From positions 90,001 to 122,000 of the forward strand of contig NC_007517.1 of assembly GCF_000012925.1 (NCBI RefSeq): a stretch of DNA of 32,000 nucleotides. Reading direction: 5' to 3'. The position numbers and the translations under genes are program-made. A model generated the notes under the pieces. That model did no database searches, was not told where the DNA came from, and was given only the letters and a program-made list of their open reading frames with translations. Source of the stretch: Geobacter metallireducens GS-15 (GTDB lineage Bacteria; Desulfobacterota; Desulfuromonadia; Geobacterales; Geobacteraceae). Shown one piece after another: positions 5,728 through 13,597 of the stretch (its first letter is position 1; every line of letters starts with the position of its first letter).

Positions 5728-7236
5728 TCAGAGGATGGGGGTCAGCGGCAGCGACTTCCAGAGGCGCAGCCTGTTCCGCTTGGCCGCCGAGGCGCGGCGG
5801 TCCGGGTTGTCCGTGGCCGGATTCCAGCTGTTCTCCGGGCGCATGTCCCGCTCGATCCGCTCCTCCACCTGGCGGGCCAGGGCGGGGTTGCGGACCATCA
5901 CCCCCACCTCGGTGTTCAGGTTGGCGGAACGGGGGTCCAGGTTGAAGGTGCCGACGAACAGAGTCACGCCGTCGATCACCATGGTCTTTGCATGGAGGGC
6001 GAAGGTGGGGGGCTTCTCCTTCAGCTTCGGGTAGCGGTCGATCAGCTCCTGCCGCACGGCCGGGTCCGGGCGGAATTCCCGGATGGTGATCCCCGCCTTC
6101 AGGAGCCGGTTGCGCTGCTTCCGGTAGCCGCTGAAGGCCTGGAGGTTGTCGGTGGCGGCCAGGGAGTTGGTGACGATCCGCACCTCCACCCCGCGCCGGA
6201 TCAGCTTCCGGAACAGCTCCACGCCCCCCTCGGGCATGACCAGGTAGGGGGACTGGATGGTGACCCGCCGCTTGGCCCGGCTCACCGCGTCCACCAGGGC
6301 CGCCGTGCTCCGGCCGCCGCCCCCCAGTCCCTCCCGGCCGCTGTTCTTTCCCGGCAGGTCCGAGATGAAGCGGGCCTCGTCCCAGACCATCTCCCGCAGC
6401 AGCCCGTCGAACCTGCGGGGGAGGTTCTGGAGCGCCTGGCGGACCTCCGGGGCGAAGTTTTCCGGCTTCCCGGCATAGGCGTGGAGGCCGGCATAGACCT
6501 GGCCGGTCCGCTCCGGCGTCATCTTCTTCATGGGCTTTTTCAGCAGCTTCTCCACCGGCACAGCCAGGGGGCTCTCCCAGAAACGGGCGAAGCTCGCCTC
6601 CGCCTCGGCCACAGTCGGGCCGAGCATCAGCATGTCCCGGTCCCGGAAGGTGTACTCCTGGTCGAAATCGTAGTACTCGTCGGCCATGTTGCGGCCGCCG
6701 GTGATCCCCACCATGCCGTCGAAGAGGGCGGTCTTGTCGTGCATCCGCTGGTTCACGGAACGGAAGCCGGTCACAACGTTGGCGAACCGCTTCACCTTCG
6801 AGGTTCCCACCGTCATCTTCGGGTTGTAGATCCGGATGTCGATGTTGGGGTGACGGGCCAGGGCCAGGAGCGATTCCGGCGGCGCGTCGATGAGGAGGTC
6901 ATCCACCAGCACCCGCACCCGTATCCCCCGCTCCGCCGCCCGCAGCAACGCCTCCGAGGCCAGGATGCCGATGTTGTCGCTGCTCCAGATGAAATACTGG
7001 ACGTCGATGCTCTTCGTGGCGTGGTCCGCGAGCCACGCCCGGGCCAGGAGCGACTCTTCCCCCTTTTCCAAGACATAGAGGCCGGTCTTGCCGGGGTGGG
7101 CAGACAGCAGGGGCTGGATGCTCCGGGCCAGGGGAAGCGTTACCGGGGTGGTTTCGGCGGCTGACAGGCGTGCGCCGGGAACGGCGGTGAGTATGAGAAG
7201 GAGTGACAGGGTGATAAGGAGCAGAGGTCGGATCAT
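5728..7236 (-). CDS. Secreted phospholipase D / cardiolipin-synthase-like protein with two HKD motifs
   Basis: The two HxK(x)4D motifs are MHDKTALFDG and LHAKTMVIDG. ATG 7236 gives the signal-like N-terminus MIRPLLLITLSLLLILTAVPGARLSAAE. The track start at 7362 adds 42 unsupported codons. Confidence 0.88.
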   Translation of the reverse strand: MIRPLLLITLSLLLILTAVPGARLSAAETTPVTLPLARSIQPLLSAHPGKTGLYVLEKGEESLLARAWLADHATKSIDVQYFIWSSDNIGILASEALLRAAERGIRVRVLVDDLLIDAPPESLLALARHPNIDIRIYNPKMTVGTSKVKRFANVVTGFRSVNQRMHDKTALFDGMVGITGGRNMADEYYDFDQEYTFRDRDMLMLGPTVAEAEASFARFWESPLAVPVEKLLKKPMKKMTPERTGQVYAGLHAYAGKPENFAPEVRQALQNLPRRFDGLLREMVWDEARFISDLPGKNSGREGLGGGGRSTAALVDAVSRAKRRVTIQSPYLVMPEGGVELFRKLIRRGVEVRIVTNSLAATDNLQAFSGYRKQRNRLLKAGITIREFRPDPAVRQELIDRYPKLKEKPPTFALHAKTMVIDGVTLFVGTFNLDPRSANLNTEVGVMVRNPALARQVEERIERDMRPENSWNPATDNPDRRASAAKRNRLRLWKSLPLTPIL

Positions 7237-7370
7237 TACAAAGAGCCTCGTTTCAATTGTCGGGAAGAGCGCGCAAAAAGGGCAGTCCCGCAGCAGTTTC
7301 GGCAGTTTTGGGGACAGTTTATTTCTCTGTCGAATAACCTGTCCCCAGACAGAGAATGTCATAGTTTCTT

Positions 7371-8261
7371 CTACCTGCGCTGCAATGCGATGTATCTCGC
7401 TACATCATCCCATTTGACAGAGAAATCAATCAATTCTCGTTTGACTTCGAATTTAGTCTGCGCTGATGGAGTGGTACGGGCGAATTCCATAAGCCCACGT
7501 CGAGGGGCAATTGCTCCAGCCAGCAAATTTTCTGTGGTCTGCGCCAAATCTGATGGGCTCATACCAAGTAAAGTCGCCGGACTCGAAGAAGGATAAAGTA
7601 GGTTTGATAAATTGTGCGTTGCCGGTTGAAACTCGGGTACCTTGGGTACTTGGGTCTCTTTGTAATTTGGTTTTAACAGCAGTTTCTCTCTTCCCAGCAG
7701 CTTTTCTCTGAATTCCTTCGATACTCTGCTCTGTCCAGGGGAAACCCTTGATTCCATTTTGCACGCCCTATGTAACGCCGGGCCTATGGCTGTCACAAAC
7801 GTATCTCCTCGTGGCCCTATTTTGGCCAATATCAATTTCCCATGGTGCAGAATTGTTTTAGTCAAAAAATGATATTTACTGAAGGTTGCATCGAGAGATT
7901 TCATCTGTAGAGCTGCTATTCGGCAGTAATATGCGGCATAAAGAACAGAGAGTGCGTTCACTTTGTCTGCTCTGAAATAGGCAATGATGCTATCTCCGAC
8001 ATATTCGACCTGATCATCGTCAGCGCCAAATTCGCGGGATATTTCATCAACCGAGGAAAGAAAAGTATGAGCTAGCTTGAGATATGTCTTATGAGTCCGC
8101 GTCCAGGTGAATAACGTCGAATCAACGAGGTCAATTTTGAGCATGTAGAACTCACGCTCGGTCCCCTCACCGCGTTTCAAGGCAGATGGAACTTTGTCTA
8201 CAATTCCGCCGGCAGCCTCGTTATAATGTTTATTTATAATCTCATCGATTGTCTTAGCCAT
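7371..8261 (-). CDS. Divergent class-III nucleotidyl-cyclase-like protein (Cyc2) with a C-terminal extension of about 110 aa of unknown function
   Basis: The 296-aa product lies in low-GC DNA. Cyclase-homology motifs are YMLKIDLVDST (first metal Asp), EYVGDSIIAYF (second metal Asp) and TAIGPALHRACKMES. The last aligns to GRPLNVACRLQS of the upstream cyclase, but with His and Lys in place of Asn and Arg. Its ATG lies 23 bp after the effector stop. Confidence 0.7.
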   Translation of the reverse strand: MAKTIDEIINKHYNEAAGGIVDKVPSALKRGEGTEREFYMLKIDLVDSTLFTWTRTHKTYLKLAHTFLSSVDEISREFGADDDQVEYVGDSIIAYFRADKVNALSVLYAAYYCRIAALQMKSLDATFSKYHFLTKTILHHGKLILAKIGPRGDTFVTAIGPALHRACKMESRVSPGQSRVSKEFREKLLGREKLLLKPNYKETQVPKVPEFQPATHNLSNLLYPSSSPATLLGMSPSDLAQTTENLLAGAIAPRRGLMEFARTTPSAQTKFEVKRELIDFSVKWDDVARYIALQRR

Positions 8262-8284
8262 TGTCAGATACCCTGGGTTGCTGG

Positions 8285-8730
8285 TTATTTACTACAGTAA
8301 TACAGAAACAACATCCGACCCCAAAAACCACAGACGAGCCATGCCATTACAAGAATATATGCCCATTTCAATCTAACTTCTTTCATGTCTCTAATGTATG
8401 CCAGCTTCATTTGCTCAAACACCAATTCTTGTTTGATGGCATCAATGGTGTCTGGAAGTTTTTTGACATAGTCCTCCAAGCGTACCTTCGAGGAAATATC
8501 CCTATTGATAAATGCATCACGTAATCCAAGATCGTACAACCCATCATTGTAGAAAGTCCCGATGGGGCAGTCCGTGAAAGTAACGTGGGATTTTGGATTG
8601 TGAATTGCCATTACGGACCGCATTGCAGCAACGAAGGCAGCAAACCATGTACAAAGGAACAACATAATTAGCGCCCAAAGTTGCCACTGGCCAGGCCCAC
8701 AATATACAGTCTGATGTAGTTTCGAAAAAT
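8285..8730 (-). pseudogene. 3' fragment of the IS-disrupted 3-TM effector gene (PycTM-like)
   Basis: Reading from 8722 down gives KLHQTVYCGPGQWQLWALI with no stop. This is in frame with track ORF 8665..8285 (MLFLCTWFAAFVAAM...WAYILVMAWLVCGFWGRMLFLYYCSK). Positions 8723..8730 are the left copy of the target-site duplication. Confidence 0.8.
8723..8730. repeat. Target-site duplication of the ISL3 element, left copy (CGAAAAAT)
   Basis: An identical 8-mer lies at 10103..10110, immediately outside the two terminal inverted repeats. Confidence 0.85.
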
Positions 8731-10102
8731 GCCTCGTCCGCAGAATCTGTGGGTAGTTGGCTGAAAAAATAAGGGCATTGCCCCTCCGTGAAGGATAAGA
8801 TTGTTTTTGCGAGAAACGATCAAGTCCGACACGGGAGAAGCAATGCTTATCAAGACTGTACTGAACAAGTTCGAGCGTTTCAAGTCCTTCATTTACGGAG
8901 ATTGCCGACTGGCGAAAGTCGGCGGCTCAGAAGCACTGGTCATTGACATCAAGGCTCGTCGCAACAGCAAGCCCGAATGCCCGGAATGTGGCAAGCGAGG
9001 CAAGACATACGACACGCAACCGGCCCGACTGTTCGAGTATGTGCCGATCTGGGCGTTCAAGGTCTTCTTTCGCTACGCTCCCCGTCGGGTTCTGTGCCCA
9101 ATCCATGGGGTAAAGGTTGAATCCCTCCCCTGGGGGTATGGCAAAGAGCAAATGACGATCTCGTACCAGGTCTATCTTGCCCGGTGGGCTCGGCGACTCT
9201 CCTGGAAGGAAGTTGCCGAAATCTTTAAGACCAGTTGGGACAGCATCTTTCGGGCGGTGCAGTATGCTGTCGATTACGGCCTGGCAAACAGAAACCTTGA
9301 TGGCGTTACGGAAATCGGTGTTGATGAAATTGCCGTCTTCAAGGGCCATCAGTATCTTACGATGGTCTATCAGCTCAATGCCGGCGTCAGGCGTCTTCTC
9401 TGGTGTGGTCCGCAACGTCGGATAAGAACGCTACTGCGCTTCTTTCGGGAATTCGGCAAAGAACGCAGCGCCAAGCTCAAGTATGTCTGCAGCGACATGT
9501 GGGCACCGTATCTCAAGGTTATCGCCAAGCGGGCACCCAATGCCGTGAACATCCTCGACCGCTTCCACATCATGCGGAAGTTTAACGAAGCGATTGACGA
9601 GGTTCGGCGCACCGAAGCCAAGGAGTTCAAGGCCGCCAAGCAGGAGAACGTCCTGGAAAAGGGCCGTTGGTTGCTGCTGAAACGGCCGGAAAATCTGTCC
9701 GAGAAGCAGACGTCACGATTGGGAGATTTGCTCAAGCTCAACCTCTCATCAATCAAGGCATATCTGCTGCGCGAGGACTTTCAGCAGTTCTGGGACTACC
9801 AGCGGTCTGACTTTGCTGGCAAGTTCCTCGACGACTGGGTCATCAGGACAATGCAAACTGACCTGGAACCGATGAAGAAGGTTGCCAGGATGTTACGCAA
9901 CCACAAACCGATGATTCTCAACTGGTTCAAGGCAAAAGGCCGACTTTCCAGCGGCGCGGTAGAGGGTCTGAACCTCAAAGCAAAACTGACTATCAGAAAA
10001 GCGTACGGTTTCCGAACCATCAAGTGCCTGCAAGTGGCGCTATATCACACACTTGGCGACTTGCCAGAACCCCTGTGTCACCACAGATTCTGCTAAAGAG
10101 CC
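8731..10102 (+). mobile_element. ISL3-family insertion sequence (1372 bp)
   Basis: The terminal inverted repeats are GCCTCGTCCGCAGAATCTGTGG (8731..8752) and the reverse complement of 10081..10102, GGCTCTTTAGCAGAATCTGTGG, with 18/22 identity. They are flanked by an 8-bp direct repeat. There is a single transposase ORF whose stop codon lies inside the right repeat. Confidence 0.88.
8843..10096 (+). CDS. ISL3-family transposase
   Basis: The product starts MLIKTVLNKFERFKSF, has a CPECG zinc-finger, and carries IGVDEIAVFKGHQYLTMVYQL and ILDRFHIMRKFNEAIDEVRR, typical of DDE_Tnp_ISL3. ATG 8843 is preceded by GGGAGAAG. The track start at 8801 is probably too far upstream. Confidence 0.9.
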   Translation: MLIKTVLNKFERFKSFIYGDCRLAKVGGSEALVIDIKARRNSKPECPECGKRGKTYDTQPARLFEYVPIWAFKVFFRYAPRRVLCPIHGVKVESLPWGYGKEQMTISYQVYLARWARRLSWKEVAEIFKTSWDSIFRAVQYAVDYGLANRNLDGVTEIGVDEIAVFKGHQYLTMVYQLNAGVRRLLWCGPQRRIRTLLRFFREFGKERSAKLKYVCSDMWAPYLKVIAKRAPNAVNILDRFHIMRKFNEAIDEVRRTEAKEFKAAKQENVLEKGRWLLLKRPENLSEKQTSRLGDLLKLNLSSIKAYLLREDFQQFWDYQRSDFAGKFLDDWVIRTMQTDLEPMKKVARMLRNHKPMILNWFKAKGRLSSGAVEGLNLKAKLTIRKAYGFRTIKCLQVALYHTLGDLPEPLCHHRFC

Positions 10103-10267
10103 CGAAAAATTGAGATATATCTTTCCTGAATTAGTAAGTGCCAAGATCAATATGCCCATCACAACAGCTGCTTTGGTGTCATTAACCCTAATAGCAGATT
10201 GAATATCTGTGATCGAGGCGTATAGGAATGCCAATATTTTTCCATCATTCTCTTTGCTCATTATCAT
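10103..10267 (-). pseudogene. 5' fragment of the IS-disrupted 3-TM effector gene (PycTM-like)
   Basis: ATG 10267 (or 10261) gives MIMSKENDGKILAFLYASITDIQSAIRVNDTKAAVVMGILILALTNSGKIYLNFS, with a codon boundary exactly at 10103. Track ORF 10040..10267 then reads 20 junk codons into the IS right repeat. Positions 10103..10110 are the right copy of the target duplication. Confidence 0.8.
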
Positions 10268-10319
10268 TACCCTTTAACACCCCTTGTGCTTATCACTCAA
10301 TGGCTTGCAAAATGTACTA

Positions 10320-10994
10320 TTAACCTCGATTCTTACGCTGTAGCAATGGAGGATGCAGTATTCGTTTTGTTACATTTTGTGGTTCTATACTCATGAGTTT
10401 CATGCAACTGACTCTCCTACTACCTGCAATATTACGAAGGGTTCTCTCTACCTCGGTAAAACGCCACTGTATAGTATCTTGTTTGATAGAATTGTAAAGA
10501 TTTTTGGTCATCAGCATCTTATTAGCAGGATTCTTGTCGCGATCTTTTATTGCGCTTTGCAACCTACATGCAACGTTCAGTGGCCGTCCCACATATTCGT
10601 CACGATGGTTCAACCTTATCTTGATTAACCGTCCGCGATCCATTCCGATTGTTAGACCTATAATTTCTGGTGGAGTTTCTAAAACCGGGTGGATTTTCTG
10701 CTCATAGAGATGTTTAAACGTGGTGCACAATTTTCGAATGAATGGAAGAAGCTTTTCTCCGTCAATATTGTGATCAAATAGAAGAATCCAGCCATCGCCA
10801 GTGAAGTTATAGAGTCGGAAAGGAAAGTTATCTCCTTGTTCTACGATGAATTTCTTTACACCTATCAACAAATTACGCCATTTTTGCAAATTGTCGGTGC
10901 GATGAAGATCTTCAAGAATATCTGTAGATGAGCATATGTCGAAAACTAAAACAGCGGCCATAACTTCCTGCGCCATGTCAGACTCTTGTGTCAT
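10320..10994 (-). CDS. Class-III nucleotidyl cyclase (Cyc1), PycC-like, minimal single domain
   Basis: The 224-aa product lies in low-GC DNA. Motifs are AAVLVFDICSST (metal Asp), YNFTGDGWILLF (metal Asp) and EYVGRPLNVACRLQS (N-x-x-x-R transition-state pair). GGAGAA lies 8 nt upstream of the ATG. The effector gene starts 52 bp downstream. Confidence 0.8.
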   Translation of the reverse strand: MTQESDMAQEVMAAVLVFDICSSTDILEDLHRTDNLQKWRNLLIGVKKFIVEQGDNFPFRLYNFTGDGWILLFDHNIDGEKLLPFIRKLCTTFKHLYEQKIHPVLETPPEIIGLTIGMDRGRLIKIRLNHRDEYVGRPLNVACRLQSAIKDRDKNPANKMLMTKNLYNSIKQDTIQWRFTEVERTLRNIAGSRRVSCMKLMSIEPQNVTKRILHPPLLQRKNRG

Positions 10995-11026
10995 TAGTAT
11001 ATTCTCCTCTGTTCAACATAATTATT

Positions 11027-11060
11027 GAGCGGTTCACGCGCACGCGCGCATGAACCGCTC
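11027..11060 (-). terminator. Perfect 10-bp stem hairpin at the SPFH-gene / island junction (candidate terminator)
   Basis: GAGCGGTTCA (11027..11036) pairs with TGAACCGCTC (11051..11060) around a 14-nt alternating GC loop. It lies 45 nt after the SPFH stop on the minus strand and is followed by A/T-rich AATAATTATGTT, which is not a clean U-tract. Confidence 0.4.
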
Positions 11061-11104: not shown

Positions 11105-13597
11105 TCACGCCTGAGGCTGCTTCCCCCCCTTCGCCATCAACGCATTCAAATCCACCCCCGGCAGCAGCCGGGTCAACTGCCCCATGAGCCCGTCGCCGGC
11201 TGTGCCGCCGCCGGAGACGAGCACATCGGGGACGATCTTGATCTGGCCGTTTTCGATGGCGGCGGAGATCAGTTCGACGATCTTGATCTGCTTGATGGCG
11301 TCTTCGCCGATGGCCTCTTTCTGTTTCGAGTAGGCCTGGGCGGTGGCGTCGCCGATGGCGGCGATCTTTGACGCCTCGCCGTCGCCGATGGCCTTCAGCC
11401 GCTTCCCTTCGCCGGTCCCTTCCAGGGCCTGGGCTTCGGCGGTACCTTCGGCCAGGGTGATCATCTCGGCCTTCTTCTGGGTGGCCACCTTCACGGCGAT
11501 CTCAGACGCCACGAGGGTAGGCTGCTGGTCGGCGGTGGCCCGCATCTTCTCCATCTCGGTCCGCTCGGCCTGGGAGCGCTGCTCCATCTTGTACATCTCC
11601 TGCTGCTGCTCGGCGATGATCCGCTTGGTCTGGGTCTCCATCAGGTCTTCGGGGAGCTTGATCTGGCATATGAGTACGGAGACACACTCCACATGGTACC
11701 TCTCCAGGTCGATGCGGGCACGGCTCTCGGCTTTGGACTGCTCTTCGGAGCGGCTCTGGAGGAAGTTCATGGCCGAGGCGGTAGAGGCCTGGTTGCGGAA
11801 GGAGGAGTCGATCATGGGGTGGATGACGTGCTGGATCAGGTTGTCGATGGATCCCACCTTTGCCACCATGTAGGGGGCCTGGTCGGGCCGGACGCGGATG
11901 ACCACCTTAACCGCCACCTGGATGGGGAAGCCGTCCTTGGAGATGACGGTGAGCTGGTCGAAACGGGTGTCCTCCTGGTCGTCCCAGTCGATGGTGATGT
12001 TGGTGGTGTCGATGATGTAGCACATGAAGGCCCGGCGGTTCAGGTAGTAACGGCCGGGTCCGGCCACCTCCTCCTGGATCCCCCGGAACCCCTTGGGGAC
12101 CACGTACTTCTCTTTCCCCTCCTCGATGGAGGCGCCGGTCTGGGATGAGCCGAGCCGCTTCTTCATCTCCTCCGTCGGGTCATCCCCCACGTTGGAGACG
12201 ATGACCCCCACCTGGCCCCGCTCCACCACGGCCACATCGTCAATGGCGACGCTGAACATGAGGGGGTTGATGTAGTAGGTGCCGGGGCGAAGGACGTCGA
12301 GCTGCGGTCCCCGCTGGCCGCTCTTGGTGAGGAAGGCGGAGCCGTCCTGGTAGTCGTTGTGGCCGGTGATGGGGGAGGCGACATACTCCCGCTCCGGCAG
12401 GGGGATGCCGTCCAGGGCGGTGACCAGACCGATCTTGTTGGCCTCCACGACCGCCGCCGGGGCGATCTGGATCTGGAACAGGTTCAGGTTGATCCGGTAG
12501 GTACCGGGGAGGAGCACGTCGATCTGGGGCCCCTTCTGGCCGCCGTTTTTCAGGAATGCCTCGCCGTTCTCGAAGTTGGAGTGCTCCGGCACGCTCTGGG
12601 CCAGGAGCCGCCCCATTGGGATCGGTTCGCCGTCCTGGGCCGTGACCATCCCCACCTCACCCTTGGCGATGACCACCGCCGCCGCCTTCATGATGCGGAA
12701 GAGATTGGGATGGATCCGGTAGACCCCCGGCGGCAGGATTTCGATCTGGGGTCCCTTCTGGCCGCCGTTCTTGATGAATGCCTCGCCGTCCTGAAAGGAG
12801 TTGTGCCCCGGCACCACGTTGGCGAAGATCCGCCCCGCGGGGATGGCCGAGCCGTCCGACGACTCCACCATGCCGATCTCCCCTTCGCTGATCTTGGTGG
12901 CGAGGCTCTTGGTGACCTTGAAGAGGTAGGGGTTGATCCGGTAGTTGCCCGGCGGGATGATCTCGATCTGGGGCCCCTTCTGGCCGCCGTTCTTGATGAA
13001 CGCCTCGCCGTTTTGGAAGGAGGCGTGCCCCTCCACCGCCCTGGCGAAGATTTTACCCTCGGGGATGGCGGCGCCATCCACCGACTCGACGATGCCGATT
13101 TCCGTGTCCTTGATCTCGGTGACAGTCCCCTTGGTCAGCTTGAAGAGGTAGGGGTTGATCCGGTATTTCCCCGGAGGGAGCACCTCGATCTGGGGCCCCT
13201 TCTGGCCGCCGTTTTTGATGAAGGCCTCGCCGTCCTGGAAGGAGTTGTGACCGGTTACCACCTCGGCGAAAATCCGCCCCGCCGGAATGGCGTTGCCGTC
13301 CACCGATTCGATGAGGCCGATCTCGTTGTCGAGGATTTCCGTGAAAACGCTCTTGGTCGCCTTGTAGATGAAGGGGATGAGGAAATGGAGCCCCGGGCCG
13401 AGGGTGCGGGCCTGGATGCCCACCTCGTTCCCCAGGGCCACGACACGTCCCTGGGGCATCTTGCTCCCGAACCAGCGCCGCTCGATGAGGGCGATTTCGT
13501 TACCGCCGACAATGACGATTGAGGCATAGAGGAGGACGGCAATGGGCACCAGTGCGGCAAAGTACCCCCAGTGGTCAAGAACGACATTTAATAACAT
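11105..13597 (-). CDS. SPFH/band-7 (flotillin / YqiK-like) membrane protein with an expanded N-terminal repeat array
   Basis: The 830-aa product has an N-terminal TM segment (YFAALVPIAVLLYASIVIV) and then five 74-aa tandem repeats. An SPFH core follows (FDQLTVISKDGFPIQVAVKVVIRV), then a long Glu/Ala/Lys-rich coiled-coil tail typical of flotillins. AAGGA lies upstream of the ATG. Confidence 0.85.
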   Translation of the reverse strand: MLLNVVLDHWGYFAALVPIAVLLYASIVIVGGNEIALIERRWFGSKMPQGRVVALGNEVGIQARTLGPGLHFLIPFIYKATKSVFTEILDNEIGLIESVDGNAIPAGRIFAEVVTGHNSFQDGEAFIKNGGQKGPQIEVLPPGKYRINPYLFKLTKGTVTEIKDTEIGIVESVDGAAIPEGKIFARAVEGHASFQNGEAFIKNGGQKGPQIEIIPPGNYRINPYLFKVTKSLATKISEGEIGMVESSDGSAIPAGRIFANVVPGHNSFQDGEAFIKNGGQKGPQIEILPPGVYRIHPNLFRIMKAAAVVIAKGEVGMVTAQDGEPIPMGRLLAQSVPEHSNFENGEAFLKNGGQKGPQIDVLLPGTYRINLNLFQIQIAPAAVVEANKIGLVTALDGIPLPEREYVASPITGHNDYQDGSAFLTKSGQRGPQLDVLRPGTYYINPLMFSVAIDDVAVVERGQVGVIVSNVGDDPTEEMKKRLGSSQTGASIEEGKEKYVVPKGFRGIQEEVAGPGRYYLNRRAFMCYIIDTTNITIDWDDQEDTRFDQLTVISKDGFPIQVAVKVVIRVRPDQAPYMVAKVGSIDNLIQHVIHPMIDSSFRNQASTASAMNFLQSRSEEQSKAESRARIDLERYHVECVSVLICQIKLPEDLMETQTKRIIAEQQQEMYKMEQRSQAERTEMEKMRATADQQPTLVASEIAVKVATQKKAEMITLAEGTAEAQALEGTGEGKRLKAIGDGEASKIAAIGDATAQAYSKQKEAIGEDAIKQIKIVELISAAIENGQIKIVPDVLVSGGGTAGDGLMGQLTRLLPGVDLNALMAKGGKQPQA
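12212..13321 (-). repeat. Five tandem 222-bp (74-aa) in-frame repeats inside the SPFH gene
   Basis: The landmark GATCTGGGG(C/T)CCCTTCTGGCCGCCGTT recurs at 12521, 12743, 12965 and 13187, exactly 222 bp apart. A degraded copy sits near 12296. The protein repeat consensus is IG.VES.DG.AIP.GRIFA..V.GH.SFQ.GEAFIKNGGQKGPQIE.LPPG.YRINPYLF. Confidence 0.9.

Follow-up and report, generated by a model that had tools for sequence, protein, structure and literature searches.

Pycsar is normally described as a two-gene system of one cyclase and one effector, where the cyclase makes cyclic CMP (cCMP) or cyclic UMP (cUMP) on infection and the nucleotide activates the effector, resulting in abortive infection. 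The form with a transmembrane (TM) effector, PycC together with PycTM, was reportedly presented by Tal et al. in 2021, and we know of no account of how Pycsar cyclases sense infection. Here, we analyze a low-G+C island of Geobacter metallireducens GS-15 (contig NC_007517.1), situated in a stretch of 32,000 nucleotides (nt; positions 90,001 to 122,000, hereafter the window), in which the gene of a PycTM-type effector is flanked by the genes of two cyclases, Cyc1 and Cyc2.

The PycC enzymes described to date form homodimers, with their two active sites arranged symmetrically (PMC11224242). A preprint (bioRxiv 10.64898/2026.08.12.744502) on Pucsar, an offshoot of Pycsar that produces cyclic GMP, mentions more than one cyclase being encoded in some Pycsar-1 loci that have pJV1-SpdB3 3TM effectors, and speculates on relay or amplification. 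Analogously, Thoeris with several ThsB and one ThsA, and CBASS Liu-DS2 with cGAS and DAC, have been read as widening the range of phages sensed (PMC13069673). An earlier note on the window, made from the letters only, had placed the third gene of the island outside known architectures. Indeed, the two-gene definition fails here, but multi-cyclase Pycsar is already mentioned in the 2026 preprint. Experimental work on multi-cyclase Pycsar loci was not found in our literature searches.

Results

The middle gene of the island is interrupted by an ISL3-family insertion sequence (IS; Table 1), and deletion of the element together with one copy of its target duplication rejoins the effector pieces in frame, yielding an open reading frame (ORF) of 200 amino acids (aa). 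Congruent with what the earlier note had described for the gene freed of the IS, three hydrophobic helices are present (residues 34-52, 68-86 and 176-194), and the restored protein aligns without gaps over the junction to intact homologues of 198-205 aa, with 79-87% identity. Intact homologues suggest that translation probably begins at the third codon, the ATG at 10261, giving 198 aa. The restored effector matches the PADLOC PycTM model PDLC02364 (2.9e-13). It stayed below detection for PF18967 (PycTM) in the Pfam scan, a domain that intact homologues at 84-87% identity carry. It thereby supplies the adjacent TM-helix (PycTM) or TIR effector that defines Pycsar, here of the 3-TM pJV1-SpdB3 type. 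Across the three proteins, PADLOC gave no matches other than to PycC and PycTM models, the effector matching the latter and both cyclases the former, leaving neither a CD-NTase as in CBASS nor a TIR/SIR2 protein as in Thoeris; the fit of a cyclase plus TM effector to Pycsar, as suggested previously, is thus retained. The NCBIfam scan of the three cassette proteins returned nothing useful.

The IS carries the features of its family, namely a DDE transposase, terminal inverted repeats of 22 nt with 18/22 matching (GGCTCTTTAGCAGAATCTGTGG and GCCTCGTCCGCAGAATCTGTGG), and a target duplication of 8 bp, CGAAAAAT (8723-8730 and 10103-10110). The transposase with helix-turn-helix and zinc ribbon, the inverted repeats of about 20 nt starting GGCTCTT and the duplication of 8 bp are likewise shared with known ISL3 elements, compared to which nothing is unusual, and no second copy exists in the window. 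The G. metallireducens effector is on record solely in truncated form and assemblies break at the IS; therefore, the insertion appears fixed in the sequenced strains of this species. As the insertion splits the effector, the G. metallireducens cassette is most likely inactive; the ORFs of Cyc1 and Cyc2 are both intact. Hence, the Pycsar-like reading of the earlier note applies to the type of cassette but not to this copy, which has a disrupted effector and is probably non-functional. We consider the Pycsar-type identity of the cassette and its inactivation by the IS highly probable. In two metagenomic relatives, L021 (1713-2251) and L022 (2969-3524), PycTM is spread over two ORFs that overlap but differ in frame, which suggests a frameshift. 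Along with the IS of the window, this hints at recurrent loss of a toxic effector with the cyclases kept, or else at assembly error.

Cyc2 is the more PycC-like of the two cyclases, with a score of 4.6e-11 for the PADLOC PycC models as compared to 3.3e-6 for Cyc1, placing Cyc2 in the PycC branch of the class III cyclases and Cyc1 only weakly so. Its match to Pfam Guanylate_cyc (0.0019) is below cut-off. A profile of 22 Cyc2 homologues (A1) finds as its best PDB match 7R65, the cUMP synthase of Burkholderia cepacia (3.9e-7), and the same structure is the top Foldseek match (7r65_A, E 3.6e-10, TMt 0.70) of the AlphaFold2 (AF2) model of Cyc2, which has a pLDDT of 83. The roles assigned in the earlier note, with Cyc1 as the PycC and Cyc2 as the extra protein, are thus reversed. 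As far as these matches indicate, Cyc2 is distantly related to BcPycC, a uridylate cyclase of clade B. Invariant among the 22 sequences are D44, D90, H164, K168 and W284. The metal-binding Asp pair (D44 and D90) expected of a Pycsar cyclase is therefore in place, and the class III catalytic set is partial: K168 is present as well, while the invariant His H164 takes the place of the ribose-binding Asn that BcPycC shares with class III cyclases. The UTP-specifying residues of BcPycC (Y50, D94 and R97) are not kept, with K42, V88 and S91 at these positions in Cyc2. The Cyc2 family is small, with about 34 clusters at 50% identity, and fast-diverging, and no relatives were found in viral contigs.

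The earlier note had also set apart a C-terminal extension of about 110 aa in Cyc2. This region resolves into a disordered linker of about 55 aa (residues ~215-266, poorly conserved, Pro-rich and modelled with pLDDT <50) and a conserved, confidently modelled strand and helix of 25 aa (residues 271-295, containing W284), with no separate domain. A new sensor domain at the C-terminus was considered and rejected, the AF2 model showing a disordered loop, one strand and one helix; an AGS-C domain of the Pycsar-2 type was dismissed on the same model and on the lack of any Pfam domain in residues 200-296. A C-terminal β-hairpin has been described for BcPycC (PMC11224242), and the strand of Cyc2 may complete an equivalent hairpin, the long loop then being an insertion.

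Cyc1 has the motifs FDICSST, TGDGWILLF and GRPLNVACRLQS, as previously pointed out, and an AGGAG motif 10 nt upstream of its ATG. The Pfam scan gave no match for Cyc1 and a phmmer search of the single sequence against the PDB nothing, while the family profile has CyaB as its best PDB match (1e-4). D19, G66-D67-G68-W69, R137, N140 and R144 are invariant in the family alignment (A2; 29 sequences for D19 and D67), and the class III catalytic set of Asp pair, Asn and Arg is complete (D19, D67, N140 and R144). The AF2 model (pLDDT 90) has adenylyl and guanylyl cyclases as its top Foldseek matches (OaPAC, CyaC), with PycC structures ranking 32nd and 44th. Cyc1 and its family profile are accordingly closest to the purine cyclases CyaB, CyaC and OaPAC. 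With this resemblance, Cyc1 may or may not fall in the Pucsar subclade, whose cyclases make 3',5'-cGMP. The specificity residues of BcPycC, EaPycC and AnPycC are conserved in neither Cyc1 nor Cyc2, and the sequence consequently gives no nucleotide prediction.

Scans of genomes and metagenomes with the Cyc2 profile recovered 34 loci, to which look-ups of close effector homologues added four. A PycTM homologue directly adjoins the Cyc2 homologue in 8/8 genome loci and, among metagenome loci whose flanks are long enough, in nearly all, and the order is TM followed by Cyc2 in nearly all loci. Nineteen non-redundant loci were informative, either because a minimum of about 800 nt of flank is available to each side or because a partner had already been seen. 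Of these 19, 16 have a second cyclase-like gene as a direct neighbour. The cyclase-TM-cyclase synteny, which the earlier note had set as a test beforehand, is thus a layout conserved in other loci; the only informative ones without a second cyclase are L010, L011 and L012, with TM and Cyc2 alone. Moreover, no cyclase match was detected away from the core in 238.6 kb (941 ORFs), all extra ones adjoining it.

The second cyclases come from at least five families. Family B (PADLOC PycC 1.4e-13) is present in L006, L007, L009, L019, L020/22, L032, L033, L034 and L038, family C in L005 (Guanylate_cyc 0.016), a probable family C' in L023 (motifs only) and family D in L017 (Guanylate_cyc 1.2e-8), while L013, L051 and L053 have a canonical PycC (PDLC02368, 1.6e-99) and G. 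metallireducens, in the window studied, has Cyc1. The metal-binding Asp pair is kept in Cyc1, Cyc2 and family B. Cyc1 homologues were not found beside Cyc2 homologues in the Cyc2-locus scans, and the partner cyclase was therefore recognized as differing among loci. Its position also varies: the partner gene may precede TM, separate TM from Cyc2, follow Cyc2 or lie on the other strand, with divergent or convergent partners in L017, L023, L032 and L038. The pairwise identities of family B, TM and Cyc2 over seven loci are saturated at about 40-50%. Neighbours of the related loci include restriction, Mrr_cat, HEPN_AbiV, toxin-antitoxin, GmrSD, RhuM and resolvase or integrase genes. In L051 (2607-4649), the closest intact triad, two more conserved genes follow Cyc2 on the same strand (322 and 349 aa, with no Pfam match); both are absent from G. 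metallireducens.

The constituents of the cassette are exchanged between loci. In the restored island, nt 84-719 (Cyc1) match at the DNA level only the Cyc1 gene of L039/L041 (82%), and nt 823-2357 (TM and Cyc2) only L051 (88.6%), L013 and L053; judged from these matches, the island is mosaic, combining two modules that each have relatives of their own. The first position in L051, L013 and L053 is occupied by the canonical PycC of 240 aa, 90-92% identical among the three, the stop of which overlaps the TM start in L051 and L053. In L039-L042, the Cyc1 homologue (82% aa identity) is instead followed by a different PycTM (PADLOC 4.8e-26) and then by a close BcPycC homologue (7R65 8.6e-95; PDLC00766 5e-104). 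The two cyclases of L019 and L020 are 79% and 82% identical, yet the TM proteins (1168-1752 and 1746-2381, respectively) only 27%; about 660 nt separate the TM gene from the cyclases in L020, with B and Cyc2 downstream. The comparison indicates that the effector was swapped between these two loci while the cyclase pair stayed together. Exchangeable units are thus the first cyclase, the TM-PycC pair and the effector, and the examples always keep two cyclases and one TM effector. As the module swaps preserve this composition, which we view as the strongest evidence, it is likely that the two-cyclase composition is selected rather than accidental.

The Cyc1 family comprises 330 matches of about 205 aa, widespread in environmental bacteria and present in one archaeal metagenome-assembled genome. 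Most of the relatives examined have no PycTM neighbour. They adjoin a 636-aa HATPase_c_3 protein (L043), an HNH gene and two unknown genes (L044), a 2-TM protein (L050), PIN_8 and GmrSD genes (L049), integrase and toxin-antitoxin genes (L047), or housekeeping genes (L045 and P0120), and L055, at a prophage end beside an integrase, is the sole Cyc1 relative found in viral contigs. Several of these neighbourhoods are defence-like. Cyc1 therefore has the appearance of a self-contained module for signal generation, joined to one partner or another, and given relatives in such varied contexts, independent action fits better than an obligate heteromer. The family may represent the signal module of several undescribed systems. 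In L045/L046 (3551-5797), a Cyc1 relative and an upstream STAS-like (SpoIIAA-like) gene lie between two acetate/butyrate-kinase paralogues, an odd and apparently metabolic setting.

Besides the IS, the island contains three genes only, all on the minus strand and without mobility genes of their own, and the tight packing reported before is reproduced, with gaps of 52 and 23 nt. The G+C content of 7365-11025 without the IS is 42% (0.42), compared to 0.64 in both flanks and 0.53 for the IS itself. The drop is hence as sharp and real as the earlier note had stated, but runs from about 64% to about 42% rather than from 65-70% to 35-40%. The DNA homology shared with L039/L041 sets in at about 11017 on the high-coordinate side, and that shared with L013/L051/L053 stops at 7364-7370 on the low-coordinate side, rendering the limits initially drawn essentially exact. 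The low-G+C island is a horizontally acquired cassette. Neither flanking direct repeats of at least 8 nt nor a tRNA-type boundary were found around the island or at its edges, and a promoter and terminator scan gave counts near the shuffled expectation. Cyc1 and Cyc2 are 100% identical to proteins of G. metallireducens strain RCH3.

Table 1. Features of the island and its high-coordinate border, in coordinates of the window.
Feature	Position	Strand	Basis or description
Low-G+C three-gene cassette with inserted IS	7364..11017	-	G+C contrast and homology ends
Cyc2, PycC-type cyclase, 296 aa	7371..8261	-	PADLOC PycC; Pfam Guanylate_cyc below cut-off; fold match 7R65
Parts of Cyc2 (residues)			cyclase core 1-206; disordered loop ~215-266; conserved strand 271-282; helix 284-295
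PycTM effector, C-terminal piece	8285..8722	-	codons 56-200: TM2, ~90-aa soluble segment, TM3
ISL3-family IS inside effector gene	8731..10102	+	1372 bp; inverted repeats, target duplication, transposase
ISL3 transposase ORF	8801..10096	+	431 aa; Pfam DDE_Tnp_ISL3 1.5e-78; NCBIfam transpos_ISL3 NF033550 4.2e-92
PycTM effector, N-terminal piece	10103..10267	-	codons 1-55, including TM1; in-frame join to 8285-8722
Cyc1, minimal class III nucleotide cyclase, 224 aa	10320..10994	-	exchangeable first-position cyclase
GC-rich palindrome, 34 nt, GAGCGGTTCACGCGCACGCGCGCATGAACCGCTC	11027..11060	.	read off the sequence; just outside the high-coordinate island edge

The palindrome is located upstream of Cyc1 and downstream of an SPFH-like gene, and probably serves the host gene as a terminator or boundary element; it could also be a recombination hotspot. 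The 830-aa product of the latter neighbour (11105-13597, minus strand) displays an unusual repeat architecture, in which a unit of about 70 aa (…GEAFIKNGGQKGPQIE.LPPG.YRINP.LF…) recurs five or six times, with, after these repeats, an SPFH/HflC-like C-terminal part (NCBIfam HflC 1.7e-5). On the low-coordinate side, a minus-strand gene (5728-7236) encodes a secreted PLD/cardiolipin-synthase-like protein with weak similarity to DrmC of DISARM (1e-17, below cut-off); it is probably outside the island, as its G+C content equals that of the host. Further away, a small gene for a Bro-N domain, which is phage-associated (approximately 1103-1474 of the window, minus strand), is positioned between gatA (1513-2970) and gatB, inside what normally is the gatCAB operon, as seen in the gene tables of L001-L003.

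Discussion

Our best overall explanation, held with middling confidence, is a horizontally acquired three-gene cassette for abortive infection of the Pycsar type with two independent sensor cyclases. One PycTM is flanked by two non-orthologous class III cyclases, each of which would form its own head-to-tail homodimer in the manner of the known PycCs, and each may be switched on by a different infection cue. Both would then feed a cyclic mononucleotide signal into the single PycTM, the activation of which would damage the membrane and abort the infection, with the cell being killed or arrested. A second sensor could provide a wider phage range or make evasion harder, comparable to Thoeris with several ThsB per ThsA. 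We favour independent sensors because the partners are diverse and swappable, because complementary degeneracy of the active sites is not seen and because TM and Cyc2 stand alone in three loci, although for this specific mechanism our preference is tentative.

Several points weigh against it. The two cyclases are very different, Cyc1 being purine-cyclase-like and Cyc2 PycC-like, and a common nucleotide product, which the shared effector seemingly requires, is not self-evident. The Asn of the catalytic set is replaced not only by the invariant H164 in Cyc2, but by Phe, Tyr or Trp in family B, and given such replacement one partner could be catalytically weak or regulatory. The many Cyc1 relatives that stand as solo genes beside housekeeping genes could imply that some of the adjacency is hitch-hiking. 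The informative loci of the census are mostly metagenomic, and families C and C' were detected by motif or weak hidden Markov model score. Finally, the mechanism is put forward from sequence.

Other arrangements could also join two cyclases to one effector. The real synthase might be an obligate heteromer, a Cyc1:Cyc2 head-to-tail heterodimer having one competent site and one degenerate or regulatory one. Such an assembly would agree with class III active sites being built across the dimer interface (PMC11224242), with Cyc2 lacking the canonical Asn and Cyc1 having the full Asn/Arg set, and with the tight linkage and recurrent pairing of the two cyclase genes, which in L019 and L020 stayed paired while the effector changed. 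However, a co-adapted interface is hard to square with at least five unrelated partner families swapped among close relatives. Both proteins furthermore keep both metal-binding Asp, family B also lacks the Asn, so that its pairing would be without a canonical site, and partner genes reside on the opposite strand in L017, L023, L032 and L038. Complementary degenerate active sites, the signature of a heterodimer, were rejected, since the partner families do not show the residue pattern that this would call for. With the number of these families, the variable order and orientation and the partner missing in three loci, the heteromeric cyclase proposed in the earlier note is disfavoured in its obligate form, and we find it rather improbable. 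More broadly, the cyclases may be non-redundant, through different nucleotides or a heteromer, with PycTM integrating two signals as an AND/OR gate or as a guard circuit of decoy and alarm; to this we give minor weight. If it were true, an exchangeable first-position cyclase would retune the circuit against Apyc1-type phosphodiesterases or nucleotide sponges. In a two-signal circuit proper, of the relay, amplifier, guard or decoy kind, the enzymes would make different nucleotides, with one priming or inhibiting the other, or a constitutive decoy would be depleted by the phage as in Panoptes, depletion by sponges or phosphodiesterases triggering the effector. That the nearest enzymes are purine cyclases for Cyc1 but a uridylate cyclase for Cyc2 would suit such a circuit, as would the absence from Cyc2 of every UTP-specifying residue of BcPycC, and there is a precedent for decoy nucleotides (PMC12657218). 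On the other hand, neither cyclase has a cyclic nucleotide-binding or other receiver domain (Pfam, PADLOC, NCBIfam), the C-terminus of Cyc2 is a short strand and helix rather than a sensor domain, and the diversity of partners speaks against a specific enzyme-to-enzyme relay. We therefore regard this circuit as unlikely.

Independent sensors may also be contrasted with explanations that dispense with a joint function. TM and Cyc2 could form a complete two-gene Pycsar next to which Cyc1, an orphan cyclase or separate defence gene, landed in a hotspot, congruent with most Cyc1-family members examined not adjoining a PycTM and with the mosaic of two modules. The chance for this is slim, considering the extra cyclase directly adjacent in 16 of the 19 informative loci and nowhere else in the 238.6 kb, the same-strand gap of 52 nt, the stop-start overlap in L051 and L053, the closest Cyc1 relative again immediately upstream of a different PycTM-PycC pair, and an island that holds nothing besides the three genes. 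Housekeeping signalling by cyclic AMP or cyclic GMP towards a membrane target, not immunity, would be in line with the database annotation 'adenylate/guanylate cyclase' and with the one Cyc1 relative among kinase genes. It is however hardly plausible for shuffled modules in a foreign island of low G+C, with a patchy distribution and a small, fast-diverging family, all the more as restriction, HEPN_AbiV, toxin-antitoxin, GmrSD and integrase genes are found near other loci and the effector is of an experimentally validated defence effector family (PADLOC, Pfam PycTM).

Irrespective of how the signals are combined, a second, freely exchangeable cyclase is the rule in a small PycC-like family. The triad represents a compact, testable model for whether multi-cyclase loci broaden sensing, create two-signal logic or counter anti-Pycsar enzymes. 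In addition, annotation pipelines will probably name the wrong gene as PycC in such loci, and miss IS-disrupted effectors such as the G. metallireducens copy.

Comparison with known systems

Multi-cyclase Pycsar-1 in the 2026 preprint is of the same kind as the triad; the mention is a single sentence, without census, family definitions or experiments, and may or may not extend to the Cyc1 and Cyc2 families. Like Thoeris with multiple ThsB or CBASS Liu-DS2, the cassette has several signal-producing or sensing enzymes and one effector, but the folds are TIR, CD-NTase and DAC in those systems as opposed to the class III cyclase here, and the parallel is confined to function. Heterodimeric class III cyclases, such as C1/C2 of mammalian adenylyl cyclase and the alpha/beta forms of soluble guanylate cyclase, display complementary loss of catalytic residues and stable, co-evolved partners. 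The triad resembles these in that two paralogous cyclase-homology domains are encoded or used together, yet both Cyc1 and Cyc2 keep the Asp pair and the partners are swapped between families. As in clade B Pycsar (BcPycC, 7R65), a class III-type cyclase adjoins a small 3-TM PycTM, with Cyc2 having its best profile and fold match there and preserving both catalytic Asp residues as well as the GxxxNxxxK Lys. Unlike clade B Pycsar, there are three genes rather than two, and Cyc2 differs from BcPycC by His for Asn, the missing UTP-specifying residues, the ~55-aa disordered insertion and an additional helix at the C-terminus, its weak score for the PycC model (1e-11) setting it apart from typical PycCs as a divergent clade. 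Taken together, and despite departing from the two-gene definition and having divergent cyclases, the cassette resembles a TM-effector Pycsar in its workings and can for the most part be classed as one.

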